DNA from: Eledone cirrhosa
Taxonomy: Eukaryota
Length of the DNA stretch: 64,000 nucleotides
Reading direction: 5' to 3'
Assembly (NCBI GenBank): GCA_964016885.1
Contig: CAXHJY010001410.1
Coordinates: 1 to 64,000, forward strand
In this document: positions 1,095-64,000 of the stretch, piece after piece
Layout of the letters: every line of letters begins with the position of its first letter
Position numbering within the stretch: the stretch's first letter is position 1
The notes under the pieces: generated by a model
The model's database searches: none
What the model was told of the DNA's origin: nothing
Seen by the model: the letters and a program-made list of their open reading frames with translations, nothing else
Program-made: the position numbers and the translations under genes

Positions 1095-28819
<27,725 letters not shown>

Positions 28820-29458: not shown

Positions 29459-29523
29459 TATTTTATTATACATATTTCAGAGGTACTGAGCTATTTCATC
29501 ATACGTCCTCATCAGATAAAATA
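29459..29523 (-). ncRNA. Minimal type I hammerhead ribozyme motif
   Basis: tattttat-CTGATGA-ggacgta...gtacctct-GAAA-tatgta-TA-ataaaata; 8-bp stem I. Confidence 0.75.
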
Positions 29524-29599
29524 AATTGATGTCTGACATACCTCAATTTATTTTATCTGATGAGGACGTACTGATGAAATAGCTCAGTACTTCTGAAAT

Positions 29600-29983
29600 C
29601 ATCATCATCATCATTTCATTTTACGTCCACTTTTTCCCTGCTTTCAAGGGTGGGACGGGAACTGATTCTGGCTTGATTTCTACAGCTGGATGCCCTTCCT
29701 AACACCAACCTCATTTACAGTGAGTGCTGGGTGCTTTTTTGCCGTGGCACCTCCACGACCACTTTGCAGTGGAATGATAGGGACCCCAGTCCCTATCATC
29801 TCATTTCTACAGCTGAGTAAACTGGAGCAATGTGAAATAAAGTGTCTTGCTCAAGGAAACTACACATCACCCGGTGAGAATTGAACTCACAACCTTTCGA
29901 TTGCAAGGCCAATGCTCTAACCACTAAGCCATGTGCCTCCATTGCAAGGCCAATGCTCTAACCACTAAGCCATGTGCCTCCAT
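29600..29983 (-). mobile_element. SINE family A with a duplicated 5' head (~41 bp)
   Basis: Same consensus; ATTGCAAGGCC...GTGCCTCC occurs twice. Confidence 0.88.
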
Positions 29984-34246: not shown

Positions 34247-36342
34247 TTAATCAGATTTTTTCGAAAGCCCACACATATCCATGGAAATATCCCACATTTT
34301 TTGGGACAATGCTTTGTCCTTGGTCAATGGAGAGACCATCTGCGATAGAGCAACATTCTCGAAAAAACATCCACTGATGTTTTCCAAACTGGGGTCAACT
34401 GCCATGTAGATAACAGTGAGGGCCCCGTCGTGTGTTGTGCGACCAATCTTTGTGGATAACCAGCCCATGAAGTGAAGGACCCAACTCCACGGGCTGCCAC
34501 TGGAATACCATATCTCTGAAGAAACATAACCGGGACACAAACTGTTGGCGGTTACGTTATACTCCCGTAATTTCTCAGTGAGGGTCTTAGTGTGCCAAAT
34601 TTGGGCCAGTTTACTAAGAGCGTACCCATACAAATAAGGATATTTAACACAAATACTTGATGGGCTGTTGTTTGATTGACAAGAAAAATCTGGTGCTTTC
34701 TTGACTACCAAATGTCGCATTGAACTCACATTAATTATACGACTTGGTGCGGATTTCTTGAGCAGATCCAACAAGAGATAGGTGAGCAGAAATGGTCCAA
34801 CATAGTTCACACCGAACACACTGTTATAACCTTGCTTTGTTATCTTCTCTGGGTGTACAGCGAGACCTGCATTGTTTATCAACACATCCAGTTTCGGTTC
34901 TGTATTAAGTATCTGCAATAAAAAAAAATATTAACTTTTAACATCCAGGAATGGTTTTAGCAGAAAATATCTAAAAACGTATTCATTAATTCAAATGTTT
35001 ATAGTCTTTACAAGCAGACAGATTGCAGTGGAAATTTGTAGTATTAAATCTGTAGTGATAAGAACTCACCTTGATCACTTACACCTCTCTAAGACAATGT
35101 CACTGGATCGAGATCTGCCATTGCATACAAACCTACAGTCAGTAGGCACCTCTTAACTCAATGTACACCCCACACACCCTACCTACCCTCCCTCTCCCGT
35201 TCAATCCACTGTGTCAGTGACACAACATTCCACACTGTAATGTGGTCATGTAGGAGACACGGTAAAAAGGCTCCCAGTCCACACTGTAATGTGGTCATGT
35301 AGGAGACACAGTAAAAAGGCTCCCAGTCCACACTGTAATGTGGTCATGTAGGAGACACAGTAAAAAGGCTCCCAGTTCACACTGTAAAGTGGTCATGTAG
35401 GAGACACAGTAAAAAGGCTCCCAGTCCACACTGTAAAGTGGTCGTGTAGGTGTCACAACAAAAAGTACCCAGTCCACACTGTAAAGTGGTCATGTAGGTG
35501 TCACAACAAAAAACACCCAGTCCACACTGTAAAGTGGTCATGTAGGTGTCACAACAAAAAGTACCCAGTCCACACTGTAAAGTGGTCATGTAGGTGTCAC
35601 GACAAAAAGCACCCAGTCCTACACTGTAAAGTGGTCATGTAGGTGTCACAACAAAAAGTACCCAGTCCACACTGTAAAGTGGTCATGTAGGTGTCACGAC
35701 AAACAGTACCCAGTCTACACTGTAAAGTGGTCATGTAGGTGTCACGACAAAAAGCACCCAGTCCACACTGTAAAGTGGTCATGTAGGTGTCACAAAAAAA
35801 ACCACCCAGTCCACACTGTAAAGTGGTCATGTAGGTGTCATGACAAACAACACCCAGTCCACACTGTAAAGTGGTCATGTAGGTGTCACAAAAAAAACCA
35901 CCCAGTCCACACTGTAAAGTGGTCATGTAGGTGTCATGACAAACAACACCCAGTCCACACTGTAAAGTGGTCATGTAGGTGTCACAAAAAAACCCACCCA
36001 GTCCACACTGTAAAGTGGTCATGTAGGAGACAGCAAAAAGCACCCAGTCCACTTTGGAAAATACTTTGAAAGGAAGTTGTCCCAGAAATGGGAACACAAA
36101 TGGAATAAAACAAGTTTCATGTAAATTGAAGCACAGGTTCCCGAGATATGGGGTTTTTCCAGGTACCTTCATAAACAGAGAGAGAGAGATAGGGAGGAAG
36201 AGATGGTGGTTGTGAGAGAGTATATTGAAAGAGAGACATAGAGTGAGGGAGAGGAGACAGAGAAGGAGAATGGCAGAGAGAGAGAGAGAGAGAGCTGGTG
36301 GTGTTGTGTCTATATATCTATATATATATATGAGTGAGAGTC

Positions 36343-36399
<57 letters not shown>

Positions 36400-37141
36400 G
36401 TGTGTGTGTGTCTATGACCAGTGTATATAGACCACAGACACCCACATATATATATATACACATACATACATACGTATATATATATGTATACACACACACA
36501 TATTTATATATATATACATACACACATATATATATATATATACGGGCCTTCCAGTTTCATTTCACATTATATATATGTCTGTGTATATTTTAATTATTTA
36601 AAAATTATTTTTAAGTGAACATGATTTTAAAAAAATATTTTGAAGTGAACATGACCCAACGGGTCACAGGTGGTCTAGTTTATATATATATATATATATA
36701 TAAAATATTTAAAAAATAATGAATAAAACAATGAAACAGTTCCTTATATTAAACAAAAAAAGTTCATTATTTAACGATCGTTTCTAGGATATATATGTGT
36801 TAGAATTGGCATGCATATTCAACAGATCTATGTACAAAATTATACAAAATTATACAAACTATCAAAATTAAATATACATACCAACACATATATATGCCGT
36901 CTTCAGAAATAATGATGATGATAGTAATAATGTAAACGATCGTTAAATAATGAACTTTTTTTGTTTAATATAAGGAACTGTTTCATTGTTTTATTCATTA
37001 TTTTTTTAATATTTTATCTTGACTCTGTATTCCGTTTATCTTTCACCGAAAGTGATTTTTCATTGCATCTCTTCTTTCCATGATATACATTGAGTTCTTC
37101 ATACGGATTGGACACTACCGTAAACTCTTGGTAGATTTATC

Positions 37142-37191
<50 letters not shown>

Positions 37192-38223
37192 GTATTTCCG
37201 TAGGAAAGGTAAAGGAAAAGAGATTGCTCTATGTAGGCTACAGAGCTTTTATTACTATCATCATCATCATCATCATTTTACGTCCGCTTTTCCCTGCTTG
37301 TAACGGTGGGACGGGTCTTATTCAGCACAGCATCTCTCCACTTGTCACGGTCCTTCGTCATCTCCACCGTGAGCTTCAATGATCTGAGGTCTGTTCTCAC
37401 CACCTCCGCCCATGTTTTTCGTGGTCTACCTCTACCACGTCTTGCTTCAACTGGCATTTCCTGGCACTTCTTCACCCATCAGTCATCCTCCATGCGCATC
37501 ACATATCCATACCACCTCAGTCTCCTGTCCCGTACACTACATTCTATCCCTCTCAGACACAGTTTCTCTCTCAACACATCACATGTCCATACCACCTCAG
37601 TCTCCTGTCCCGTACACTACATTCTATCCCTCTCAGACACAGTTTCTCTCTCAACACATCACATATCCATACCACCTCATCTCCTGTCCCGTACACTACA
37701 TTCTATCCCTCTCAGACACAGTTTCTCTCTCAACACATTTATGCTGGGTCGTTCACGCACATTTACACTGCACATCCAACGGAGCATGCTTGCCTCATTT
37801 CTCTGCAGCCGTCGCATATCCTCTGCAGTTGCTGCCCATGTCTCACTACCATGCAGCATCGCGTTCCTCACACAGGCATCATACTACTGGCCTTTCGTAC
37901 GCAGGGAGAAACCCTTCTTCGTCAACAGAGGAAGCAGCTCCCTAAACTTCTTCCAACCCGTCCTTCTTCTAGATACTATGGCCTCGGAACACCCCCTCCC
38001 ATGCTAATCTGATCTCCTAGGTACCGGAGGCTATCCACAAATTCTATAGCGCCCTCCTGCATTTGAAAAATGTGTCTATCAATGCGACTTCTACTGTCTT
38101 ATTTCCCTGTACATCTACTGCATACATATTTCTCCCTACCTGTTAGTTTGCCTGCTATCCCGCTCCATCTCTTGTGTACCCAGGATCTGCATTTTATAGA
38201 ATTTATGCCTATATTTATTACTA

Positions 38224-38276
<53 letters not shown>

Positions 38277-38548
38277 CTATTATTACTATATATATATATA
38301 TATTTAGTTATGTAATAAACATAAGATAATTAAGTCCTAATAAGATAATTATTTCATTTACCAGTGGTTTCTTGAAGGCAGGTATTTATATCTGCCTTCA
38401 GTCGTCAGAATGAAGAGAGATATAAATATCTGCCTTCAAGAAATCACTGGTAAATGAAATAATTATCTTATTTTGTTTATTACATAACTAAATATACATA
38501 TATATATATATATATAGTAATAATAATAAAATTGAAGACTAAAATCCA

Positions 38549-38584
<36 letters not shown>

Positions 38585-38962
38585 AAGATGAAATAAAAGA
38601 TGGTATAAGAGTTCCATATATTTTATTATACGTATTTCGAATACAAAATCATCCTGGGACAGATATTGTGTTCTCTTCAGATAAAATAAGGTATAATATG
38701 AGGCATAATAGCACTTGTTTATAGGAAAGTGCTAAGTCTACATAAAATATATATATATTTATCTGACGAGGACGTACTGAAAAAACAGCACAGTACCTCC
38801 GAAATATATATAATAAAACATATATTTTGATTATGTGAACGTCTACATTTATTAATATTTTGAATAATATTAATAACTCCAGAAAACTTCTTTGTAGAGT
38901 GCTTTTAATCTATTGTTAAACTATATTCATTGAGTAATCAATGAACCATATTAATCTTTGGT

Positions 38963-38997
<35 letters not shown>

Positions 38998-39358
38998 ATT
39001 ACAATACAAAACTTACCTGCTTAGCACACTGTCGTACACTGTCCAGGTCAATTAGATCTAACTGAACAATGCTGACCATTTTGGGATCCACACCTGTAGC
39101 GACGAGGATTTCATCAGCTGCACCCCTCGCTTTAGTCAGGTTCCTACAGGCCATTATCACCCTGGACCCGCGAGACAGAAGGTTCTCGGCCGTTACCTTT
39201 CCGATTCCCGACGATGCTCCTGTGATTAAAACAGTCTTACCGTCCATTCTAGCTTGGCCGTCGTATTTCAGAGGTTTACAATGTAAGGACCAGAATTTCC
39301 GTGCAAAGGAAAAACCGATGGCTGCCATGAGCGACAGACCTAAACACAGCAAGAGCAT
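34247..39358 (-). CDS. Retinol dehydrogenase 11/12/13/14-like classical short-chain dehydrogenase/reductase, 335 aa; exons 39358-39017 and 34912-34247
   Basis: Hydrophobic N-terminal anchor, VLITGASSGIG (TGxxxGxG), VIMACRN, LDL, LINNAG, FGVNYVGPFLLT, RIINVSS, YALSK (YxxxK), PG motif; phase-0 GTAAGT...CAG intron; TAA stop. Confidence 0.95.
35229..36055. repeat. 47-49-bp minisatellite (~17 units)
   Basis: Same family, reverse orientation. Confidence 0.95.
36700..37015. mobile_element. Fold-back element with hammerhead
   Basis: ~75-bp terminal inverted arms; hammerhead spans the left arm and loop. Confidence 0.75.
36765..36914 (-). ncRNA. Type I hammerhead ribozyme motif with long stem II
   Basis: cattattt-CTGAAGA-cggc atatatatgtgtt...aacacatatatat ccta-GAAA-cgatcg-TT-aaataatg; 8-bp stem I, palindromic stem III. 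Confidence 0.72.
37258..38215 (-). mobile_element. RTE-clade LINE 3' fragment with an internal 3x80-bp tandem (37499-37737)
   Basis: MLHGSETWA..LQRNEASMLRWMC, RLRWYG, RGRGRPRKTW; (TGA)n tail. Shorter relatives at ~21345-21640, 40975-41133 and 44960-45140. Confidence 0.88.
38298..38500. mobile_element. Fold-back element with hammerhead, in (TA)n
   Basis: Inverted arms of ~80 bp; left arm has the full core and right arm only the stem II 3' side and GAAA. Confidence 0.75.
38353..38414 (-). ncRNA. Minimal type I hammerhead ribozyme motif
   Basis: ttcatt-CTGACGA-c tgaaggcag...ctgccttca a-GAAA-ccactgg-TA-aatgaa; 9-bp stem II, 6-bp stem I. Confidence 0.78.
38619..38688 (-). ncRNA. Minimal type I hammerhead ribozyme motif
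   Basis: tattttat-CTGAAGA-gaacacaatatc...gattttgtattc-GAAA-tacgta-TA-ataaaata; G-C closing pair of stem II, perfect palindromic stem III. Confidence 0.83.
38758..38817 (+). ncRNA. Minimal type I hammerhead ribozyme motif
   Basis: tttat-CTGACGA-gga c gtactg...cagtac c tcc-GAAA-tatata-TA-ataaa; same family as 29459-29523. Confidence 0.8.
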
Positions 39359-41165: not shown

Positions 41166-41256
41166 CAAGTTTTGGTACCTTTGAAATATATATAATAGAA
41201 TAAATATGGTTTTAAATATAGTTTCCATTTATTAATATCATTGATATATATATATA

Positions 41257-42157: not shown

Positions 42158-42517
42158 AAGATAAAATAAAAAATGGTTATTTATAAGAGTTCCATATTTT
42201 ACTATATGGAACTCTTATAATCATTTTTTATTTCATCTTTATTATATATACTCCAGTTCTACCATCTGTCGAGTGCTACTTATCTGATATAGGCATAGTT
42301 TTATTGTTCTACTGTTCTACAATATTAATCACCTTGAAGGCATAGCATAATTTAACTTTGTATCCTTGAAATATGTATAATGAAATAAATATGGTTTTAT
42401 AAATATAGTATCCATTTGTTAATATCGTATATCTACTCCAAATACTTGTCGAGTGCTTTATATCAGTTATAAAAATATTTGCTTGTTGTATCCCAACAAT
42501 TTAAATAGAACTTTTGC

Positions 42518-44835: not shown

Positions 44836-45656
44836 TTCTGTGGTACCAACATAACTTTACAGAGAAAGGGTGGTGTGGGCAGAAGTGGGAGGATGAAGTA
44901 GGGGTAGTGGGTTGGGGTGTATATTTGGTTAAGAAGTGCCTACTGAGCGTAGGTTTAACTTTGTATGGAAGGGAAGGCGGGTCTTCTGTATTACTGTGTA
45001 GCACCAAAGATCTTGATCCAGTGACATTGTCTTAGAGAGGTGCAAGTGTGTAAGGTCGGAATTTATCAGATCATCCCAGGTTTTTCTGGGTCTACCTACT
45101 CCATAACTACCATCAATTTTGATCGCCCTGCACTTAAATATAATACATAGAAATATAATTGTTTCTACTTTTGGCACAAGGCCAGCAAATACACCAGTGT
45201 ATTACTGGTACTTTATTTTATCGACCCCGTAAGGATGAAAGGCAAAGCTAACCTCGGCGGGATTTGAACTCAGAATGGCAAGGGCCGTAACTCTATGCGT
45301 CAAAGCATGGCGCCCAACCCTCTACCGATACTGCCAATCAGAAATATAATACCAGTCAAGTACTGGGGTCAATTTATTCCTCTATATCTCTTTCCCTCAC
45401 TATCCTTCTCTGGAAGAAAGCTGCTATATTCAGACCTGGAGAGGAGATGGACTCCACTGAGTTTTAAAATACCCTAGGAACACTTTATGTCAATATGACA
45501 CACTCACGACTCTCTTGAGAGTTACGGACCCATCTATACAAATATAATACCAGTCCAGTACTGGGGGTCAATTCTTCCTATCTCTTCTAAGTAACAATTC
45601 AACTAATCTTGTTATATGGAAGTGAAACATGGACACTTTCATCCAAACAACAAAAG

Positions 45657-48600
45657 CACCTTGATGGCACCTACACTACTGCTACTACTACTACCCCTAC
45701 TACCTTGATGGCACCTACACTACTGCTACTACTACTACCCCTACTACCTTGATGGCACCTACACTACTGCTACTACTACTACCCCTACTACCTTGATGGC
45801 ACCTACACTACTGCTACTACTACTACCCCTACCACCTTGATGGCACCTACACTACTGCTACTACTACTACCCCTACTACCTTGATGGCACCTACACTACT
45901 GCTACTACTACTACCCCTACTACCTTGATGGCACCTACACTACTGCTACTACTACTACCCCTACTACCTTGATGGCACCTACACTACTGCTACTACTACT
46001 ACCACTACCACCTTGATGGCACCTACACTACTGCTACTACTACTACTACTACTACTACCTTGATGGCACCTACACTACTGCTACTACTACTACCCCTACT
46101 ACCTTGATGGCACCTACACTACTGCTACTACTACTACCCCTACCACCTTGATGGCACCTACACTACTGCTACTACTACTACCCCTACTACCTTGATGGCA
46201 CCTACACTACTGCTACTACTACTACCACTACTACCTTGATGGCACCTACACTACTGCTACTACTACTACCCCTACTACCTTGATGGCACCTACACTACTG
46301 CTACTACTACTACCACTACTACCTTGATGGCACCTACACTACTGCTACTACTACTACCCCTACTACCTTGATGGCACCTACACTACTACTACTACTACCA
46401 CTACTACCTTGATGGCACCTACACTACTGCTACTACTACTACCCCTACTACCTTGATGGCACCTACACTACTGCTACTACTACTACTACCTTGATGGCAC
46501 CTACACTACTGCTACTACTACTACCACTACCACCTTGATGGCACCTACACTACTGCTACTACTACCACTTTGATGGCACCTACACTACTGCTACTACTAC
46601 TACCACTACCTTGATGGCACCTACACTACTGCTACTACCACTACTACCTTGATGGCACCTACACTACTGCTACTACTACTACTACTACTACCTTGATGGC
46701 ACCTACACTACTGCTACTACTACTACCACTACCACCTTGATGGCACCTACACTACTGCTACTACTACTACCACTACCTTGATGGCACCTACACTACTGCT
46801 ACTACTACTACCACTACCTTGATGGCACCTACACTACTGCTACTGCTACTACTACCTTGATGGCACCTACACTACTGCTACTACTACTACCCCTACTACC
46901 TTGATGGCACCTACACTACTGCTACTACTACCACTTTGATGGCACCTACACTACTGCTACTACTACTACCACTACCTTGATGGCACCTACACTACTGCTA
47001 CTACTACTACCCCTACTACCTTGATGGCACCTACACTACTGCTACTACTACCACTTTGATGGCACCTACACTACTGCTACTACTACTACTACTACCACCT
47101 TGATGGCACCTACACTACTGCTACTACTACTACTACCACTACCTTGATGGCACCTACACTACTGCTACTACTACTACTACTACCACCTTGATGGCACCTA
47201 CACTACTGCTACTACTACTACCACTACCACCTTGATGGCACCTACACTACTGCTACTACTACTACCCCTACTACCTTGATGGCACCTACACTACTACTAC
47301 TACTACTACCACTACTACCTTGATGGCACCTACACTACTACTACTACTACTACCACTACTACCTTGATGGCACCTACACTACTGCTACTACTACCACTTT
47401 GATGGCACCTACACTACTGCTACTACTACTACCACTACCTTGATGGCACCTACACTACTGCTACTACTACTACCACTACTACCTTGATGGCACCTACACT
47501 ACTGCTACTACTACTACCCCTACTACCTTGATGGCACCTACACTACTACTACTACTACTACCACTACTACCTTGATGGCACCTACACTACTGCTACTACT
47601 ACTACCACTACTACCTTGATGGCACCTACACTACTGCTACTACTACTACCCCTACTACCTTGATGGCACCTACACTACTGCTACTACTACTACCACTACT
47701 ACCTTGATGGCACCTACACTACTGCTACTACTACTACCCCTACTACCTTGATGGCACCTACACTACTGCTACTACTACTACCCCTACTACCTTGATGGCA
47801 CCTACACTACTGCTACTACTACCACTACCACCTTGATGGCACCTACACTACTGCTACTACTACTACCCCTACTACCTTGATGGCACCTACACTACTGCTA
47901 CTACTACCACTACTACCTTGATGGCACCTACACTACTGCTACTACTACTACCCCTACCACCTTGATGGCACCTACACTACTGCTACTACTACTACCACTA
48001 CCACCTTGATGGCACCTACACTACTGCTACTACTACCACTACTACCTTGATGGCACCTACACTACTGCTACTACTACTACCACTACCTTGATGGCACCTA
48101 CACTACTGCTACTACTACTACTACCTTGATGGCACCTACACTACTACTACTACCCCTACTACCTTGATGGCACCTACACTACTGCTACTACCACTACTAC
48201 CTTGATGGCACCTACACTACTGCTACTACTACTACTACCTTGATGGCACCTACACTACTACTACTACTACTACCACTACCACTTTGATGGCACCTACACT
48301 ACTGCTACTACTACTACTACCACCTTGATGGCACCTACACTACTGCTACTACTACTACCACTACCACCTTGATGGCACCTACACTACTGCTACTACTACC
48401 ACTTTGATGGCACCTACACTACTGCTACTACTACTACCACTACCTTGATGGCACCTACACTACTGCTACTACTACTACCACTACCACCTTGATGGCACCT
48501 ACACTACTGCTACTACTACTACCACTACCACCTTGATGGCACCTACACTACTGCTACTACTACCACTTTGATGGCACCTACACTACTGCTACTACTACTA

Positions 48601-51600
48601 CCCCTACTACCTTGATGGCACCTACACTACTGCTACTACTACTACTACCTTGATGGCACCTACACTACTGCTACTACTACTACCACCTTGATGGCACCTA
48701 CACTACTACTACTACCACTACCTTGATGGCACCTACACTACTGCTACTACTACTACTACTACTACCTTGATGGCACCCTACACTACTGCTACTACTACTA
48801 CCACCTTGATGGCACCTACACTACTACTACTACCACTACCTTGATGGCACCTACACTACTGCTACTACTACTACTACTACTACCTTGATGGCACCCTACA
48901 CTACTGCTACTACTACTACTACCTTGATGGCACCTACACTACTGCTACTACTACTACTACTACTACCTTGATGGCACCTACACTACTGCTACTACTACTA
49001 CTACCTTGATGGCACCCTACACTACTGCTACTACTACTACTACCTTGATGGCACCTACACTACTGCTACTACTACTACTACTACTACCTTGATGGCACCC
49101 TACACTACTGCTACTACTACTACTACCTTGATGGCACCTACACTACTGCTACTACTACTACTACTACTACCTTGATGGCACCTACACTACTGCTACTACT
49201 ACTACTACCTTGATGGCACCCTACACTACTGCTACTACTACTACTACCTTGATGGCACCTACACTACTGCTACTACTACTACTACTACTACCTTGATGGC
49301 ACCCTACACTACTGCTACTACTACTACTACCTTGATGGCACCTACACTACTACTACTACTACTACTACTACCTTGATGGCACCTACACTACTGCTACTAC
49401 TACTACTACCTTGATGGCACCTACACTACTGCTACTACTACTACTACCTTGATGGCACCTACACTACTACTACTACCACTACTACCTTGATGGCACCTAC
49501 ACTACTGCTACTACCACTACTACCTTGATGGCACCTACACTACTGCTACTACTACTACTACCTTGATGGCACCTACACTACTGCTACTACTACTACCCGT
49601 ACTACCTTGATGGCACCTACACTACTGCTACTACTACTACCCCTACTACCTTGATGGCACCTACACTACTGCTACTACTACTACTACCTTGATGGCACCT
49701 ACACTACTGCTACTACTACTACCACTACCTTGATGGCACCTACACTACTGCTACTACTACTACCACTACCACCTTGATGGCACCTACACTACTGCTACTA
49801 CTACTACCCCTACTACCTTGATGGCACCTACACTACTGCTACTACTACTACCCCTACTACCTTGATGGCACCTACACTACTGCTACTACTACCACTACTA
49901 CCTTGATGGCACCTACACTACTACTACTACTACTACCACTACTACCTTGATGGCACCTACACTACTGCTACTACTACTACCACTACTACCTTGATGGCAC
50001 CTACACTACTACTACTACCACTACTACCTTGATGGCACCTACACTACTGCTACTACTACTACCACTACCACCTTGATGGCACCTACACTACTGCTACTAC
50101 TACCACTACTACCTTGATGGCACCTACACTACTGCTACTACTACTACCCCTACTACCTTGATGGCACCTACACTACTGCTACTACTACCACTACTACCTT
50201 GATGGCACCTACACTACTGCTACTACTACTACCCCTACTACCTTGATGGCACCTACACTACTGCTACTACTACTACTACCTTGATGGCACCTACACTACT
50301 GCTACTACTACTACCACTACCACCTTGATGGCACCTACACTACTGCTACTACTACCACTACTACCTTGATGGCACCTACACTACTGCTACTACTACTACC
50401 CCTACTACCTTGATGGCACCTACACTACTGCTACTACTACTACTACCTTGATGGCACCTACACTACTGCTACTACTACTACCACTACCACCTTGATGACA
50501 CCTACACTACTGCTACTACTACTACCACTACCACCTTGATGGCACCTACACTACTGCTACTACTACTACCACTACCACCTTGATGACACCTACACTACTG
50601 CTACTACTACTACCACTACCACCTTGATGGCACCTACACTACTGCTACTACTACTACCACTACCACCTTGATGGCACCTACACTACTGCTACTACTACTA
50701 CCCCTACTACCTTGATGGCACCTACACTACTGCTACTACTACCACTACCACCTTGATGGCACCTACACTACTGCTACTACTACTACCCCTACTACCTTGA
50801 TGGCACCTACACTACTGCTACTACTACTACCCCTACCACCTTGATGGCACCTACACTACTGCTACTACTACTACCACTACCACCTTGATGACACCTACAC
50901 TACTGCTACTACTACTACCACTACTACCTTGATGGCACCTACACTACTGCTACTACTACTACTACCTTGATGGCACCTACACTACTGCTACTACTACTAC
51001 CACTACCACCTTGATGGCACCTACACTACTGCTACTACTACTACCACTACTACCTTGATGGCACCTACACTACTGCTACTACTACTACCACTACTACCTT
51101 GATGGCACCTACACTACTGCTACTACTACTACCCCTACCACCTTGATGGCACCTACACTACTGCTACTACTACTACCCCTACCACCTTGATGGCACCTAC
51201 ACTACTGCTACTACTACTACCACTACCACCTTGATGGCACCTACACTACTGCTACTACTACTACCCCTACTACCTTGATGGCACCTACACTACTACTACT
51301 ACTACCCCTACCACCTTGATGGCACCTACACTACTACTACTACTACTACCCCTACCACCTTGATGGCACCTACACTACTGCTACTACTACTACCCCTACT
51401 ACCTTGATGGCACCTACACTACTGCTACTACTACTACCACTACTACCTTGATGGCACCTACACTACTGCTACTACTACTACCACTACCACCTTGATGGCA
51501 CCTACACTACTGCTACTACTACTACCACTACTACCTTGATGGCACCTACACTACTGCTACTACTACCCCTACTACCTTGATGGCACCTACACTACTGCTA

Positions 51601-54600
51601 CTACTACCCCTACCACCTTGATGGCACCTACACTACTGCTACTACTACCCCTACCACCTTGATGGCACCTACACTACTACTACTACTACTACCACCTTGA
51701 TGGCACCTACACTACTGCTACTACTACTACCACTACCACCTTGATGGCACCTACACTACTGCTACTACTACTACCCCTACTACCTTGATGGCACCTACAC
51801 TACTGCTACTACTACTACCACTACCACCTTGATGACACCTACACTACTGCTACTACTACCACTACTACCTTGATGGCACCTACACTACTGCTACTACTAC
51901 CACTACCACCTTGATGACACCTACACTACTGCTACTACTACCACTACTACCTTGATGGCACCTACACTACTGCTACTACTACCACTACCACCTTGATGAC
52001 ACCTACACTACTGCTACTACTACCACTACCACCTTGATGGCACCTACACTACTGCTACTACTACTACTACCTTGATGGCACCTACACTACTGCTACTACT
52101 ACTACTACCTTGATGGCACCTACACTACTGCTACTACCACTACCACCTTGATGGCACCTACACTACTGCTACTACTACTACCACCTTGATGGCACCTACA
52201 CTACTGCTACTACTACTACTACCTTGATGGCACCTACACTACTGCTACTACTACTACCACTACCACCTTGATGGCACCTACACTACTGCTACTACTACTA
52301 CCACTACTACCTTGATGGCACCTACACTACTGCTACTACTACTACCACTACTACCTTGATGGCACCTACACTACTGCTACTACTACTACCCCTACCACCT
52401 TGATGGCACCTACACTACTGCTACTACTACTACCCCTACCACCTTGATGGCACCTACACTACTGCTACTACTACTACCACTACCACCTTGATGGCACCTA
52501 CACTACTGCTACTACTACTACCACTACCTTGATGGCACCTATACTACTGCTACTACTACTACTACCTTGATGGCACCTACACTACTGCTACTACTACTAC
52601 CCCTACCACCTTGATGGCACCTACACTACTGCTACTACTACTACCACTACCTTGATGGCACCTATACTACTGCTACTACTACTACCACTACTACCTTGAT
52701 GGCACCTACACTACTGCTACTACTACTACCCCTACCACCTTGATGGCACCTACACTACTGCTACTACTACTACCACTAACTTGATGGCACCTACACTACT
52801 GCTACTACTACTACCACTACTACCTTGATGGCACCTACACTACTACTACTACCCCTACTACCTTGATGGCACCTACACTACTGCTACTACTACTACCCCT
52901 ACCACCTTGATGGCACCTACACTACTGCTACTACTACTACCACTAACTTGATGGCACCTACACTACTGCTACTACTACTACCACTACTACCTTGATGGCA
53001 CCTACACTACTACTACTACCCCTACCACCTTGATGGCACCTACACTACTGCTACTACTACCACTACCACCTTGATGGCACCTACACTACTGCTACTACTA
53101 CTACCACTACCACCTTGATGGCACCTACACTACTGCTACTACTACTACCACTACCACCTTGATGGCACCTACACTACTGCTACTACTACCACTACCACCT
53201 TGATGGCACCTACACTACTGCTACTACTACTACCACTACCACCTTGATGGCACCTACACTACTGCTACTACTACTACCACTACCACCTTGATGGCACCTA
53301 CACTACTGCTACTACTACCACTACCACCTTGATGGCACCTACACTACTGCTACTACTACTACCCCTACTACCTTGATGGCACCTACACTACTGCTACTAC
53401 TACTACCACTACCACCTTGATGGCACCTACACTACTGCTACTACTACTACCACTACCACCTTGATGGCACCTACACTACTGCTACTACTACCACTACCAC
53501 CTTGATGGCACCTACACTACTGCTACTACTACTACCCCTACTACCTTGATGGCACCTATACTACTGCTACTACTACTACCACTACTACCTTGATGGCACC
53601 TACACTACTGCTACTACTACTACCCCTACTACCTTGATGGCACCTACACTACTGCTACTACTACTACCACTACTACCTTGATGGCACCTACACTACTGCT
53701 ACTACTACCACTACCACCTTGATGGCACCTACACTACTGCTACTACTACTACCACTACCACCTTGATGGCACCTACACTACTGCTACTACTACTACCACT
53801 ACCACCTTGATGGCACCTACACTACTGCTACTACTACTACCACTACCACCTTGATGGCACCTACACTACTGCTACTACTACTACCACTACCACCTTGATG
53901 GCACCTACACTACTGCTACTACTACTACCACTACCACCTTGATGGCACCTACACTACTGCTACTACTACTACCCCTACCACCTTGATGGCACCTACACTA
54001 CTGCTACTACTACCACTACCACCTTGATGGCACCTACACTACTACTACTACTACCACTACCACCTTGATGGCACCTACACTACTGCTACTACTACTACCA
54101 CTACCACCTTGATGGCACCTACACTACTGCTACTACTACTACCACTACCACCTTGATGGCACCTACACTACTGCTACTACTACTACCACTACCACCTTGA
54201 TGGCACCTACACTACTGCTACTACTACCACTACCACCTTGATGGCACCTACACTACTGCTACTACTACTACCCCTACTACCTTGATGGCACCTACACTAC
54301 TGCTACTACTACTACCACTACCACCTTGATGGCATCTACACTACTGCTACTACTACTACTACTACTACCTTGATGGCACCTACACTACTGCTACTACTAC
54401 CACTACCACCTTGATGGCACCTACACTACTGCTACTACTACTACCACTACCACCTTGATGGCACCTATACTACTGCTACTACTACTACCACTACCACCTT
54501 GATGGCACCTATACTACTGCTACTACTACTACCACTACTACCTTGATGGCACCTACACTACTGCTACTACTACTACCACTACTACCTTGATGGCACCTAC

Positions 54601-57459
54601 TACTACTACCACTACTACCTTGATGGCACCTACACTACTGCTACTACTACTACCACTACTACCTTGATGGCACCTACACTACTGCTACTACTACTACCAC
54701 TACCACCTTGATGGCACCTACACTACTGCTACTACTACTACCACTACTACCTTGATGGCACCTACTACTACTACCACTACTACCTTGATGGCACCTACAC
54801 TACTGCTACTACTACTACTACTACTACCTTGATGGCACCTACACTACTGCTACTACTACTACCACTACTACCTTGATGGCACCTACTACTACTACCACTA
54901 CTACCTTGATGGCACCTACACTACTGCTACTACTACTACCACTACTACCTTGATGGCACCTACTACTACTACCACTACTACCTTGATGGCACCTACACTA
55001 CTGCTACTACTACTACTACTACTACCTTGATGGCACCTACACTACTGCTACTACTACTACCACTACTACCTTGATGGCACCTACTACTACTACCACTACT
55101 ACCTTGATGGCACCTACACTACTGCTACTACTACTACCACTACTACCTTGATGGCACCTACACTACTGCTACTACTACTACCACTACTACCTTGATGGCA
55201 CCTACTACTACTACCACTACTACCTTGATGGCACCTACACTACTGCTACTACTACTACCACTACTACCTTGATGGCACCTACACTACTGCTACTACTACT
55301 ACCCCTACTACCTTGATGGCACCTACACTACTGCTACTACTACCACTACTACCTTGATGGCACCTACACTACTGCTACTACTACTACCCCTACTACCTTG
55401 ATGGCACCTACACTACTGCTACTACTACTACCCCTACTACCTTGATGGCACCTATACTACTGCTACTACTACTACCACTACCACCTTGATGACACCTACA
55501 CTACTACTACTACTACTACCACTACCACCTTGATGGCACCTACACTACTGCTACTACTACTACCCCTACTACCTCGATGGCACCTACACTACTGCTACTA
55601 CTACCCCTACTACCTTGATGGCACCTACACTACTGCTACTACTACCCCTACTACCTTGATGGCACCTACACTACTGCTACTACTACTACCACTACCACCT
55701 TGATGGCACCTACACTACTGCTACTACTACTACCCCTACTACCTTGATGGCACCTACACTACTGCTACTACTACTACCCCTACTACCTTGATGGCACCTA
55801 CACTACTGCTACTACTACCACTTTGATGGCACCTACACTACTGCTACTACTACTACCACTACCTTGATGGCACCTACACTACTGCTACTACTACTACCCC
55901 TACCACCTTGATGGCACCTACACTACTGCTACTACTACTACCCCTACCACCTTGATGGCACCTACACTACTGCTACTACTACTACCACTACCACCTTGAT
56001 GACACCTACACTACTGCTACTACTACTACCACTACTACCTTGATGGCACCTACACTACTGCTACTACTACCCCTACCACCTTGATGGCACCTACACTACT
56101 GCTACTACTACTACTACTACCTTGATGGCACCTACACTACTGCTACTACTACTACTACTACCTTGATGGCACCTACACTACTGCTACTACTACTACCCCT
56201 ACTACCTTGATGGCACCTACACTACTGCTACTACTACTACCACTACCTTGATGGCACCTACACTACTGCTACTACTACTACTACTACCTTGATGGCACCT
56301 ACACTACTGCTACTACTACTACTACTACCTTGATGGCACCTACACTACTGCTACTACTACTACCACTACCTTGATGGCACCTACACTACTGCTACTACTA
56401 CTACCCCTACCACCTTGATGGCACCTACACTACTGCTACTACTACTACCCCTACCACCTTGATGGCACCTACACTACTGCTACTACTACTACCACTACCA
56501 CCTTGATGACACCTACACTACTGCTACTACTACTACCACTACTACCTTGATGGCACCTACACTACTGCTACTACTACCCCTACCACCTTGATGGCACCTA
56601 CACTACTGCTACTACTACTACTACTACCTTGATGGCACCTACACTACTGCTACTACTACTACCCCTACCACCTTGATGGCACCTACACTACTGCTACTAC
56701 TACTACTACTACCTTGATGGCACCTACACTACTGCTACTACTACTACTACTACCTTGATGGCACCTACACTACTGCTACTACTACTACCCCTACTACCTT
56801 GATGGCACCTACACTACTGCTACTACTACTACCCCTACCACCTTGATGGCACCTACACTACTGCTACTACTACTACTACTACCTTGATGGCACCTACACT
56901 ACTGCTACTACTACTACTACTACCTTGATGGCACCTACACTACTGCTACTACTACTACCCCTACTACCTTGATGGCACCTACACTACTGCTACTACTACT
57001 ACCCCTACCACCTTGATGGCACCTACACTACTGCTACTACTACTACTACTACCTTGATGGCACCTACACTACTGCTACTACTACTACCCCTACCACCTTG
57101 ATGGCACCTACACTACTGCTACTACTACTACCACTACCACCTTGATGGCACCTACACTACTGCTACTACTACTACCCCTACTACCTTGATGGCACCTACA
57201 CTACTACTACTACTACCACTACCACCTTGATGGCACCTACACTACTGCTACTACTACTACCCCTACTACCTTGATGGCACCTACACTACTGCTACTACTA
57301 CTACCACTACCTTGATGGCACCTACACTACTGCCACTACTACTACCACTACCACCTTGATGGCACCTACACTACTGCTACTACTACTACCACTACCACCT
57401 TGATGGCACCTACACTACTGCTACTACTACTACTACTACTACTACCTTGATGGCACCTA

Positions 57460-57510
<51 letters not shown>

Positions 57511-57680
57511 CTTGATGGCACCTACACTACTGCTACTACTACTACCACTACCACCTTGATGGCACCTACACTACTGCTACTACTACTACTACTACTACTA
57601 CCACTACTACCTTGATGGCACCTACACTACTGCTACTACTACTACTACTACTACTACCACTACCACCTTGATGGCACCTA

Positions 57681-57716
<36 letters not shown>

Positions 57717-60700
57717 CACTACTACCTTGATGGCACCTACACTACTGCTACTACTACCACTACCACCTTGATGGCACCTACACTACTGCTACTACTACTA
57801 CTACCTTGATGGCACCTACACTACTACTACTACTACTACCACTACCACCTTCATGGCACCTACACTACTGCTACTACTACTACCACTACCACCTTGATGG
57901 CACCTACACTACTACCACTACTACTACCACTACCACCTTCATGGCACCTACACTACTGCTACTACTACTACCACTACCACCTTGATGGCACCTACACTAC
58001 TGCTACTACCACTACTACCTTGATGGCACCTACACTACTGCTACTACCACTACTACCTTGATGGCACCTACACTACTACTACTACCCCTACTACCTTGAT
58101 GGCACCTACACTACTGCTACTACTACTACCACTACCACCTTGATGGCACCTACACTACTGCTACTACTACTACCACTACTACCTTGATGGCACCTACACT
58201 ACTGCTACTACTACTACCCCTACTACCTTGATGGCACCTACACTACTGCTACTACCACTACTACCTTGATGGCACCTACACTACTGCTACTACCACTACT
58301 ACCTTGATGGCACCTACACTACTACTACTACCCCTACTACCTTGATGGCACCTACACTACTGCTACTACTACTACCACTACTACCTTGATGGCACCTACA
58401 CTACTGCTACTACCACTACTACCTTGATGGCACCTACACTACTACTACTACCCCTACTACCTTGATGGCACCTACACTACTGCTACTACTACTACCACTA
58501 CTACCTTGATGGCACCTACACTACTACTACTACCCCTACTACCTTGATGGCACCTACACTACTGCTACTACTACTACCACTACCACCTTGATGACACCTA
58601 CACTACTGCTACTACTACTACCACTACCACTTTGATGGCACCTACACTACTGCTACTACTACTACCACTACCACCTTGATGGCACCTACACTACTGCTAC
58701 TACTACTACCCCTACTACCTTGATGGCACCTACACTACTGCTACTACTACTACCTTGATGGCACCTACACTACTACTACTACTACTACCCCTACTACCTT
58801 GATGGCACCTACACTACTGCTACTACTACTACCACTACTACCTTGATGGCACCTACACTACTGCTACTACTACTACCACTACCACCTTGATGGCACCTAC
58901 ACTACTGCTACTACTACTACCACTACCACCTTGATGGCACCTACACTACTGCTACTACTACCACTACCACCTTGATGGCACCTACACTACTGCTACTACT
59001 ACTACCACTACCACCTTGATGGCACCTACACTACTGCTACTACTACTACCCCTACCACCTTGATGGCACCTACACTACTGCTACTACTACTACCACTACC
59101 ACCTTGATGGCACCTACACTACTGCTACTACTACCACTACCACCTTGATGGCACCTACACTACTGCTACTACTACTACCACTACCACCTTGATGGCACCT
59201 ACACTACTGCTACTACTACTACCCCTACTACCTTGATGGCACCTACACTACTGCTACTACCACTACCACTACCACCTTGATGGCACCTACACTACTGCTA
59301 CTACTACTACCCCTACCACCTTGATGGCACCTACACTACTGCTACTACTACCACTACCACCTTGATGGCACCTACACTACTGCTACTACCACTACCACTA
59401 CTACCTTGATGGCACCTACACTACTGCTACTACTACTACTACCTTGATGGCACCTACACTACTGCTACTACTACCACCACCACCTTGATGGCACCTACAC
59501 TACTGCTACTACTACTACCCCTACCACCTTGATGGCACCTACACTACTGCTACTACTACTACCACTACCACCTTGATGGCACCTACACTACTGCTACTAC
59601 TACTACCACTACCACCTTGATGGCACCTACACTACTGCTACTACTACTACTACCTTGATGGCACCTACACTACTGCTACTACTACTACCACTACTACCTT
59701 GATGGCACCTACACTACTGCTACTACTACTACCACTACTACCTTGATGGCACCTACACTACTGCTACTACTACTACCACTACCACCTTGATGGCACCTAC
59801 ACTACTGCTACTACTACTACCACTACCACCTTGATGGCACCTACACTACTGCTACTACTACTACCACTACCACCTTGATGGCACCTACACTACTGCTACT
59901 ACTACCACTACCACCTTGATGGCACCTACACTACTGCTACTACTACTACTACTACCTTGATGGCACCTACACTACTGCTACTACTACTACCACTACCACC
60001 TTGATGGCACCTACACTACTGCTACTACTACTACCACTACCACCTTGATGGCACCTACACTACTGCTACTACTACCACTACCACCTTGATGGCACCTACA
60101 CTACTGCTACTACTACTACCACTACCACCTTGATGGCACCTACACTACTACTACTACTACCACTACCACCTTGATGGCACCTACACTACTACTACTACTA
60201 CCACTACCACCTTGATGGCACCTACACTACTACTACTACTACCACTACCACCTTGATGGCACCTACACTACTGCTACTACTACTACTACTACCTTGATGG
60301 CACCTACACTACTGCTACTACTACTACCACTACCACCTTGATGGCACCTACACTACTGCTACTACTACCACTACCACCTTGATGGCACCTACACTACTGC
60401 TACTACTACTACTACTACCTTGATGGCACCTACACTACTGCTACTACTACTACCACTACCACCTTGATGGCACCTACACTACTGCTACTACTACTACCAC
60501 TACCACCTTGATGGCACCTACACTACTGCTACTACTACCACTACCACCTTGATGGCACCTACACTACTGCTACTACTACCACTACCACCTTGATGGCACC
60601 TACACTACTACTACTACTACCACTACCACCTTGATGGCACCTACACTACTACTACTACTACCACTACCACCTTGATGGCACCTACACTACTACTACTACT

Positions 60701-63700
60701 ACCACTACCACCTTGATGGCACCTACACTACTGCTACTACTACTACTACTACCTTGATGGCACCTACACTACTACTACTACTACTACCACTACCACCTTG
60801 ATGGCACCTACACTACTACTACTACTACCACTACCACCTTGATGGCACCTACACTACTGCTACTACTACTACTACTACCTTGATGGCACCTACACTACTG
60901 CTACTACTACTACCCCTACTACCTTGATGGCACCTACACTACTGCTACTACTACTACCCCTACTACCTTGATGGCACCTACACTACTACCACTACTACCT
61001 TGATGGCACCTACACTACTACTACTACTACTACCACTACAACCTTGATGACACTTACACTACTACTACTACTACTACCCCTACTACCTTGATGGCACCTA
61101 CACTACTGCTACTACTACTACCCCTACTACCTTGATGGCACCTACACTACTGCTACTACTACTACCCCTACTACCTTGATGGCACCTACACTACTACCAC
61201 TACTACCTTGATGGCACCCTACACTACTACTACTACTACTACCACTACAACCTTGATGACACTTACACTACTACTACTACTACTACCCCTACTACCTTGA
61301 TGGCACCTACACTACTGCTACTACTACTACCCCTACCACCTTGATGGCACCTACACTACTGCTACTACTACTACCCCTACCACCTTGATGGCACCTACAC
61401 TACTACTACTACTACTACCACTACCACCTTGATGGCACCTACACTACTGCTACTACTACTACCCCTACCACCTTGATGGCACCTACACTACTGCTACTAC
61501 TACCACTACTACCTTGATGGCACCTACACTACTGCTACTACTACTACCACTACTACCTTGATGGCACCTACACTACTGCTACTACTACTACCCCTACTAC
61601 CTTGATGGCACCTACACTACTGCTACTACTACTACCCCTACTACCTTGATGGCACCTACACTACTGCTACTACTACTACCCCTACCACCTTGATGGCACC
61701 TACACTACTGCTACTACTACCACTACCACCTTGATGGCACCTACACTACTGCTACTACTACTACCACTACCACCTTGATGGCACCTACACTACTGCTACT
61801 ACTACTACCCCTACCACCTTGATGGCACCTACACTACTGCTACTACTACCACTACCACCTTGATGGCACCTACACTACTGCTACTACTACCACTACCACC
61901 TTGATGGCACCTACACTACTGCTACTACTACTACCCCTACCACCTTGATGGCACCTACACTACTGCTACTACTACTACTACCTTGATGGCACCTACACTA
62001 CTGCTACTACTACTACCCCTACTACCTTGATGGCACCTACACTACTGCTACTACTACTACCACTACTACCTTGATGGCACCTACACTACTGCTACTACTA
62101 CTACCACTACTACCTTGATGGCACCTACACTACTGCTACTACTACTACCCCTACCACCTTGATGGCACCTACACTACTGCTACTACTACTACCCCTACTA
62201 CCTTGATGGCACCTACACTACTACTACTACCACTACCACCTTGATGGCACCTACACTACTGCTACTACTACTACCCCTACTACCTTGATGGCACCTACAC
62301 TACTGCTACTACCACTACTACCTTGATGGCACCTACACTACTGCTACTACTACTACCCCTACCACCTTGATGGCACCTACACTACTGCTACTACTACTAC
62401 CACTACTACCTTGATGGCACCTACACTACTGCTACTACTACTACTACCTTGATGGCACCTACACTACTGCTACTACTACTACTACCTTGATGGCACCTAC
62501 ACTACTGCTACTACTACTACCACTACTACCTTGATGGCACCTACACTACTGCTACTACTACTACCCCTACTACCTTGATGGCACCTACACTACTGCTACT
62601 ACTACTACCCCTACCACCTTGATGGCACCTACACTACTGCTACTACTACTACCACTACTACCTTGATGGCACCTACACTACTGCTACTACTACTACCCCT
62701 ACTACCTTGATGGCACCTACACTACTGCTACTACTACTACCCCTACTACCTTGATGGCACCTACACTACTGCTACTACTACTACCCCTACCACCTTGATG
62801 GCACCTACACTACTGCTACTACTACTACCACTACTACCTTGATGGCACCTACACTACTGCTACTACTACTACCCCTACTACCTTGATGGCACCTACACTA
62901 CTGCTACTACTACTACCCCTACCACCTTGATGGCACCTACACTACTGCTACTACTACTACCACCTTGATGGCACCTACACTATTGCTACTGCTACTACCA
63001 CTACCACCTTGATGGCACCTACACTACTGCTACTACTACCCCTACTACCTTGATGGCACCTACACTACTGCTACTACTACTACCCCTACTACCTTGATGG
63101 CACCTACACTACTGCTACTACTACTACCCCTACCACCTTGATGGCACCTACACTACTACTACTACTACCACTACCACCTTGATGACACCTACACTACTAC
63201 TACTACTACTACCCCTACTACCTTGATGGCACCTATACTACTGCTACTACTACTACCACTACTACCTTGATGGCACCTATACTACTGCTACTACTACTAC
63301 CACTACTACCTTGATGGCACCTACACTACTGCTACTACTACCCCTACCACCTTGATGGCACCTACACTACTGCTACTACTACTACCCCTACTACCTTGAT
63401 GGCACCTACACTACTACCACTACTACTACCCCTACCACCTTGATGGCACCTACACTACTGCTACTACTACTACCCCTACTACCTTGATGGCACCTACACT
63501 ACTGCTACTACTACTACCCCTACTACCTTGATGGCACCTACACTACTGCTACTACTACTACCACTACCACCTTGATGACACCTATACTACTGCTACTACT
63601 ACTACCCCTACTACCTTGATGGCACCTACACTACTGCTACTACTACTACCCCTACTACCTTGATGGCACCTACACTACTGCTACTACTACTACCACTACC

Positions 63701-64000
63701 ACCTTGATGACACCTATACTACTGCTACTACTACTACCCCTACTACCTTGATGGCACCTACACTACTGCTACTACTACTACTACCTTGATGGCACCTACA
63801 CTACTGCTACTACCCCTACTACCTTGATGGCACCTACACTACTACCACTACTACTACCCCTACCACCTTGATGGCACCTACACTACTGCTACTACTACTA
63901 CCACCTTGATGGCACCTACACTACTGCTACTACTACTACCCCTACTACCTTGATGGCACCTACACTACTACTACTACTACTACCCCTACTACCTTGATGG
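45657..64000. repeat. Giant compound satellite: constant CCTTGATGGCACCTACACTA plus variable (CTA/CCA/CTG)n, modal unit ~44 bp, >400 units, runs off the window
   Basis: Direct inspection; unit lengths vary mostly in steps of 3. Confidence 0.98.

Follow-up and report, generated by a model that had tools for sequence, protein, structure and literature searches.

Type I hammerhead ribozymes are known from several kinds of animal repeat, and the closest described counterpart of the locus reported here is the Hydra clade of Penelope elements. In the consulted parts of Craig et al. (PMC8557442), this clade is marked by a CxCx5C linker, by CxxC/CxH around E and N and by having no CCHH-type CxxC, and according to the supplement of that paper nearly all Hydra families target (TA)n and carry hammerheads, with an octopus family listed. 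5' truncation, inverted copies and one-sided tails are treated in the same parts as general to Penelope elements. As to activity, the consulted sections of an earlier study report a lone minimal motif without cleavage and dimers with little (PMC4209133), and cleavage of an anole motif depended on the element protein, and insertion in vitro did not require the motif (PMC11167929). A literature search combining octopus and hammerhead ribozyme found only Craig et al. (PMC8557442), in the parts consulted, to bear on the subject, and the word 'ribozyme' is absent from the main text of an O. vulgaris repeat paper.

The window (the whole stretch of DNA analysed, 64,000 nt at positions 1 to 64,000 of the forward strand of Eledone cirrhosa contig CAXHJY010001410.1, assembly GCA_964016885.1) carries a short-chain dehydrogenase/reductase gene on its minus strand (Table 1). 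Its two coding exons are separated by an intron with GT..AG ends (34913-39016, 4,104 nt), and the spliced frame is open over 335 aa, with TGxxxGIG and YxxxK motifs. A preliminary description had placed four hammerhead motifs in the single intron of this gene, which holds for the coding region, UTR introns being possible. A DNA search of the genome with exon 1 for a paralogue or second haplotype gave one match, the window itself, and contigs from four runs of one study showed repeat pile-ups over the intron, without a usable empty-site allele. Positions 35200-36050 of the same intron are occupied by a tandem repeat of ~48 nt that is very common in the genome, and the window ends in a 19-kb C-rich satellite (45000-64000). 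Exon-like peptides are found on the minus strand at 6863-21154, which we take to belong to a checkpoint-kinase-2-like gene; one piece of this region was scanned without a Pfam match.

Table 1. Hammerhead motifs, repeat stubs and host exons, numbered by position in the window
Feature	Position	Strand	Description
Hammerhead E (fifth)	29459-29523	-	outside the intron; 87% D-like; TATGTA palindrome; within its own hairpin
Host coding exon 2	34247-34912	-	Pfam adh_short
Family A stub	36700-36917	-	3' end of Hydra-type Penelope element with hammerhead A
Hammerhead A	36764-36915	-	stem I 9 bp; palindrome CGATCG; site GUU; cut 36773/36772
Second arm of A	36934-37140	+	inverted, 5'-truncated, one-sided tail; from alignment to copies
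Family B tail	37187-37250	-	now ~1,050 nt from the B body
Decayed LINE 3' fragment	37257-38200	-	between B body and B tail; 9-nt repeat at both sides
Family B stub	38303-38495	-	inverted arm 38408-38472 and hammerhead B; 65-bp hairpin, 92% paired
Hammerhead B	38353-38414	-	stem I 6 bp; palindrome CCACTGG; site GUA; cut 38359/38358
Family C stub	38574-38745	-	hammerhead C; G10.1-C11.1; without its own inverted arm
Hammerhead C	38619-38688	-	stem I 8 bp; palindrome TACGTA; site AUA; cut 38627/38626
Family D stub	38758-38965	+	5' truncation within stem I; head-to-head orientation with C; antisense to host gene
Hammerhead D	38758-38817	+	stem I 5 bp; palindrome TATATA; site AUA; cut 38812/38813
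Host coding exon 1	39017-39358	-	short-chain dehydrogenase/reductase; Pfam adh_short; single DNA match in the genome

The motifs were searched with a pattern descriptor requiring, in order, stem I, CTGANGA, stem II, GAAA, a palindrome, TH and stem I'. Four complete type I layouts were found in the intron (A, B, C and D), and five matches in the whole window (A-E). The descriptor was tuned so that all four intronic motifs pass, A and B with C opposite A at 10.1/11.1, and it reproduced the four motifs at the places, strands and cut sites first described for them, with three on the pre-mRNA strand (A, B and C) and D antisense. In each of the four, CUGANGA, GAAA and NUH stand in type I order with a closing stem I. 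The preliminary description had proposed a comparison with dinucleotide shuffles, and no similar density was seen there: the descriptor matched in 0 of 1,000 shuffles of 36700-38965, and locally shuffled whole windows gave 0 matches in 20. A looser scan, with the palindrome and stem II rules dropped, yielded 22 matches per 600 kb of random genome and 4 matches in 12 Mb of shuffles; since 19 of the 22 genomic matches were palindromic, against 0 of the 4 shuffled ones, the palindrome is an independent signal.

The covariance-model check that had also been proposed went the other way. A search of Rfam with the whole window and with 38280-38900, at E values up to 10, returned no hammerhead family (motif A being covered by the whole-window search only), and the matches returned instead were microRNA-like hairpins below the gathering score. 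We read this silence as a limit of those models, given the clearly passed shuffle test; all 5 of the 5 hammerheads in the window were missed. Rfam also gave partial tRNA-like matches at 29874-29931 and in four other places of the window, which are probably SINE heads. Chance matches in AT-rich palindromic DNA would account for the Rfam result and would suit D, with its (TA)-like palindrome and stem I of 5 A/T base pairs, but this reading has a negligible probability and is already refuted by the shuffle tests and by motif retention across family copies: an intact motif was retained at 15 of 18 loci of family A, at 13 of 19 of family C and at all 19 of family D. The position of the hammerhead is, moreover, fixed downstream of the element coding frames.

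The stem III palindromes are 8-9 nt long and self-complementary at 8/8 or 8/9 positions, and none is predicted to fold as a monomer. A G10.1-C11.1 pair is present in C and D, whereas A and B have C/A in its place, family-wide. The motifs had been described as sequence-distinct, and they do belong to four different repeat families, although C and D share a stem I flank and a TAYRTA-type palindrome. The palindromes of C (TACGTA), E (TATGTA) and D (TATATA) form a series that would fit CpG decay of a single ancestral palindrome, and neighbouring members of this series still pair via G-U. The base of stem II also shows C/A in a third family, seen at L108:6814-6892 and L121:2241-2322 and in L019 and L020, whose palindrome is CTAATTAG and whose stem II carries compensatory changes. 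A literature search on the C/A opposition found nothing relevant; the layout is, however, listed for PLE-X1_cBra in File S2 of Craig et al., among the consulted parts of that work (PMC8557442), and with this precedent the opposition in A and B was dropped as a candidate new core variant.

Each motif lies in a short repeat stub whose boundaries were taken from alignment to genomic copies (Table 1). Stem II of hammerhead A is long, with a 100-nt insert that is found family-wide, and 84 nt of A's inverted arm pair at 99% with 36700-36783, a segment that spans the GAAA, the palindrome and the cut site of A. Between the B body and the B tail, about 1 kb away, there is a LINE fragment, which suggests successive insertions. 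Judging from its peptide, we take this ~940-nt fragment to be RTE-like; it contains an internal 80-nt triplication (37497-37738). A further abundant repeat with (TA)n flanks is represented at 38510-38550 by a 40-nt end, and occurs in loci L066, L110, L122, L140, L144, L208 and L210 as well. First-look candidate copies numbered 208 for A, 1,396 for B, 1,471 for C and 1,873 for D, and the 40 copies scored per family were roughly 85-98% identical, with the D stub 97-98% identical to its best copies. For B, an earlier pattern with a longer stem I (1 match) was replaced by a 23-mer, which has 577 exact genomic matches against 0 for the reversed control. (TA)n flanks occur in the window and among the family copies; the 3' flank of D is here (TG)n.

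In longer copies, homology extends 5' of the stubs, through the full 1,450 nt examined in A and C and over 800-890 nt in D and B, and coding frames are met upstream. For family A these are frames of 658 aa in loci L081 and L082, which share the strand of the hammerhead, lie 2.7 kb upstream of it and sit inside inverted pairs several kb apart. In family C, L005 has the endonuclease end 0.86 kb upstream, and L006, L008, L016 and L088 agree. For D, our reading of the locus table places the endonuclease end upstream and in the same orientation at 16 of 25 loci, with a distance of 1.2 kb in L163. B has the weakest coding link of the four families, with a frameshifted RT and endonuclease that end 1.7 kb upstream in L207 and are collinear with L210 and L208, and a coding end closely upstream in just 2 of 14 long regions. 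Inside the window itself no RT/GIY-YIG coding frame was found. Pfam searches of seven element frames gave one weak GIY-YIG match and a PDB sequence search with the element proteins gave none, while the Atlas neighbours of the A protein were HTH_animal, RVT_1 and GIY-YIG clusters at 0.94-0.97. The CxCx5C linker and the order CxxC..E..N..CxH, with no CxxC within GIY-YIG, were found in A, B, C and D; the sole CCHH-type match, in L086, belongs to a neighbouring, different element. DKT was seen only in B (L207) and RWK was not found in the copies examined, which are 5'-truncated. By these motifs, rather than by a tree, the four families are assigned to the Hydra clade as candidate members. In L219, ~5.1 kb upstream of the B motif, DKT, RT and endonuclease are found together in an open frame of 621 aa that belongs to another Hydra-like family.

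We conclude, with a probability of about 0.85, that each of the four motifs marks the 3' end of a different repeat family, that Hydra-type Penelope proteins are encoded in longer copies of these families, and that the motifs are likely silent passengers. The preliminary description had correctly recognised Penelope-type dimer hammerheads of several families, but it had called the families non-autonomous, and all of them trace to elements that encode RT and endonuclease. It had also brought in retrozymes. No tandem array was found over any hammerhead and no second full same-strand copy of any motif in the intron, and a retrozyme identity is ruled out by the absence of tandem arrays together with the coding frames upstream in longer copies. 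Some short forms of B and D might nevertheless have spread as non-autonomous units, and not by repeated truncation of long elements. Most of the top B matches are compact fold-back units, an inverted arm lies within 600 nt in 14 of 29 D and 10 of 23 B copies, and short copies appear commoner than coding ones; the top B matches were, however, picked by a query that itself contains the fold-back, the inversion junction differs among copies of B and among copies of D, as independent events would give, and 5' homology reaches coding frames in other copies. We regard such a mode of spread as unlikely, and truncation of coding elements as the preferred account.

Compared with the Hydra clade, including Hydra-1_Obim, as presented in the consulted parts of Craig et al. 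(PMC8557442), the elements have the same order of RT then GIY-YIG, the same CxCx5C linker, no CCHH-type CxxC, and CxxC and CxH around E and N, and they likewise insert at (TA)n, carry a sense hammerhead with palindromic stem III near the 3' end, and show 5' truncation with an inverted arm and one-sided tail. Against the same parts of that paper (PMC8557442), differences are seen in the long stem II insert of A, in 3' untranslated parts of 0.9-2.7 kb, which take the elements beyond the 'generally under 3 kb' of that paper, in tails of roughly 60-120 nt versus 30-40, and in number, with at least 12 motif families and ~70,000 motifs (extrapolated) here versus one listed octopus Hydra family. Metazoan Penelope type I hammerheads, as described in the consulted sections of PMC4209133, share with those found here the core, the palindromic 15.2-16.2 region, a predicted dimer function, numerous families in one genome, copies that are mostly single and truncated, and pairs on opposite strands; the stem III palindromes here differ from them in being 8-9 nt, and A and B in having C/A and not G10.1-C11.1. 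Non-LTR retrozymes, so far as the consulted portions of two accounts describe them (PMC7229834; Li et al. 2026, bioRxiv 10.64898/2026.07.22.740005), also carry type I hammerheads in animal repeats, are Penelope-linked and are partly intronic, but they are non-coding head-to-tail repeats of 150-450 nt, whereas the copies here are stubs left by coding elements, either single or inverted. A sense-strand hammerhead in an intron is shared with the conserved amniote examples, as presented in part of PMC6765202. The motifs of the dehydrogenase intron belong to high-copy repeats without a stable stem III. Amniote intronic hammerheads, in contrast, occur in small numbers, are conserved and have a stable stem III.

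How unusual the cluster is was judged against the genome at large. Sixty random 10-kb pieces (L090-L149) contained 14 intact motifs, or 1 per 43 kb, and as the pieces were drawn from 19 large contigs, over ranges that were partly truncated, the total of ~70,000 motifs per 3.0-Gb genome (95% interval 38,000-117,000) is an extrapolation. At least 10 stem/palindrome families are represented among the motifs of these random loci, and positions 10.1/11.1 vary widely (GC, GT, AT, TA, CA, TT, AA). Near known copies, motifs of other families are 3.5-fold enriched, with 18 in 219 kb (21 counted minus 3 same-family variants) versus 5.1 expected; duplicate loci were removed before counting, which left 69 loci for the enrichment and 95 for the maximum-density scan. 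With four families in 2.05 kb, the cluster lies above every sampled locus, the densest having at most 3 motifs and 2 families among the 95 hit-centred 3.1-kb loci, and 3 motifs in any random 10-kb piece. By a rough Poisson calculation, the genome would be expected to hold ~1 such cluster if the average rate applied and ~35 if the local rate did. The 2.7 kb of the cluster hold 11 (TA)6+ runs, versus 1.6 per kb elsewhere. The pile-up of motifs is real, lies in the upper tail and would fit a shared (TA)n target sequence; the hotspot of the preliminary description survives in that sense, though against a background that is itself very high. Short partial matches to hammerheads C and D also occur upstream of the dehydrogenase gene, at 42357-42387 and 41175-41197.

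A density above all sampled loci, with D ending 51 nt from the 5' splice site, could be taken to mark a selected regulatory device of the host gene. This is very improbable, as all the motifs are ordinary copies within large families (85-98% identity), 86% of the intron is matched by repeats that occur in the 600-kb random-DNA sample, and the sense motifs are predicted to be misfolded. The predicted cost of opening the ribozyme fold in context is 29 kcal/mol for A, 51 for B, 10-15 for C and 18 for D, in equilibrium predictions that ignore kinetics, proteins and any dimer gain beyond ~6-10 kcal/mol. Hammerhead E, in a region that is one long self-hairpin (29459-29605), is locked by a predicted ~57 kcal/mol. 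The different palindromes had been expected not to cross-dimerise, and those of A, B and C indeed give 4/8 pairs or a length mismatch when set against one another; the palindrome of C pairs 8/8 with the TATGTA type, of which the copy in E lies beyond the stop codon, in its hairpin. In A and B the antisense arm (84 bp and 65 bp, respectively) precedes the ribozyme in pre-mRNA order, and antisense D is predicted to pair with the core of C. The inverted arms, overlooked in the preliminary description and predicted to lock A and B on the pre-mRNA, provide a further argument against cutting of the nascent transcript. Locked copies made up 1 of 16 in A, 10 of 23 in B, 3 of 18 in C and 14 of 29 in D, in samples that are biased. 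The silence in cis suspected in the preliminary description is likely on equilibrium folding, and by the same modelling the sense motifs are probably silent in the host pre-mRNA. That three of the four motifs are sense shows that a purge of sense copies is not seen here.

Such an arrangement could have arisen in a few steps. The element endonuclease would nick (TA)n, and reverse transcription would stop early, leaving a stub of 170-440 nt, often with an inverted second arm; four elements probably landed in succession where the intron is rich in (TA)n. In parent elements, tandem RNA of the element itself is presumably what the hammerhead cuts, either as a palindrome dimer or with the element protein, as published work on such motifs suggests (PMC4209133; PMC11167929). 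A lone copy is predicted to be unable to close stem III and to lack a matching partner in the intron, and the antisense arm, transcribed first, is predicted to then pair with the ribozyme.

At least one sense motif, most plausibly C, might still cut the pre-mRNA at a low rate, in trans with an RNA carrying a TAYRTA palindrome or with the element protein, and so lower dehydrogenase output. C has an intact core, G10.1-C11.1 and an 8-bp stem I, and is without its own inverted arm; its palindrome pairs fully with TATGTA-type motifs, TAYRTA families are the commonest class among the sampled loci, and protein-assisted cutting has been published for one element (PMC11167929). Its fold would, however, cost 10-15 kcal/mol in context against ~6.5 gained by the palindrome duplex, its core is paired by antisense D, pairing in trans must outrun the splicing of a 4-kb intron, and published rates are low in the sections of PMC4209133 consulted. 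We consider this outcome improbable, and low-level cutting of C as such, in trans or with protein help, equally or slightly more so. At the lower end of that estimate stands a broader proposal: with tens of thousands of dimer-dependent hammerheads that share a few palindromes, host pre-mRNAs might sense Penelope activity, with unlocked sense copies like C being cut when element RNA or protein rises, and inverted arms might serve as safety catches that let the host tolerate intronic sense copies. Silent passengers remain the preferred reading.

The elements belong to a group that has already been described, and what is new is four more families, in an arrangement largely explained by target preference. 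The ~70,000 intact layouts (extrapolated), with the five in the window missed by Rfam, may be of some use as a side result. The inverted arm is typical of the insertions and is predicted to lock the ribozyme, which offers a testable reason why genes tolerate them. If cutting of host pre-mRNA in trans or with protein help were true, transposon activity would be tied to host gene output genome-wide.
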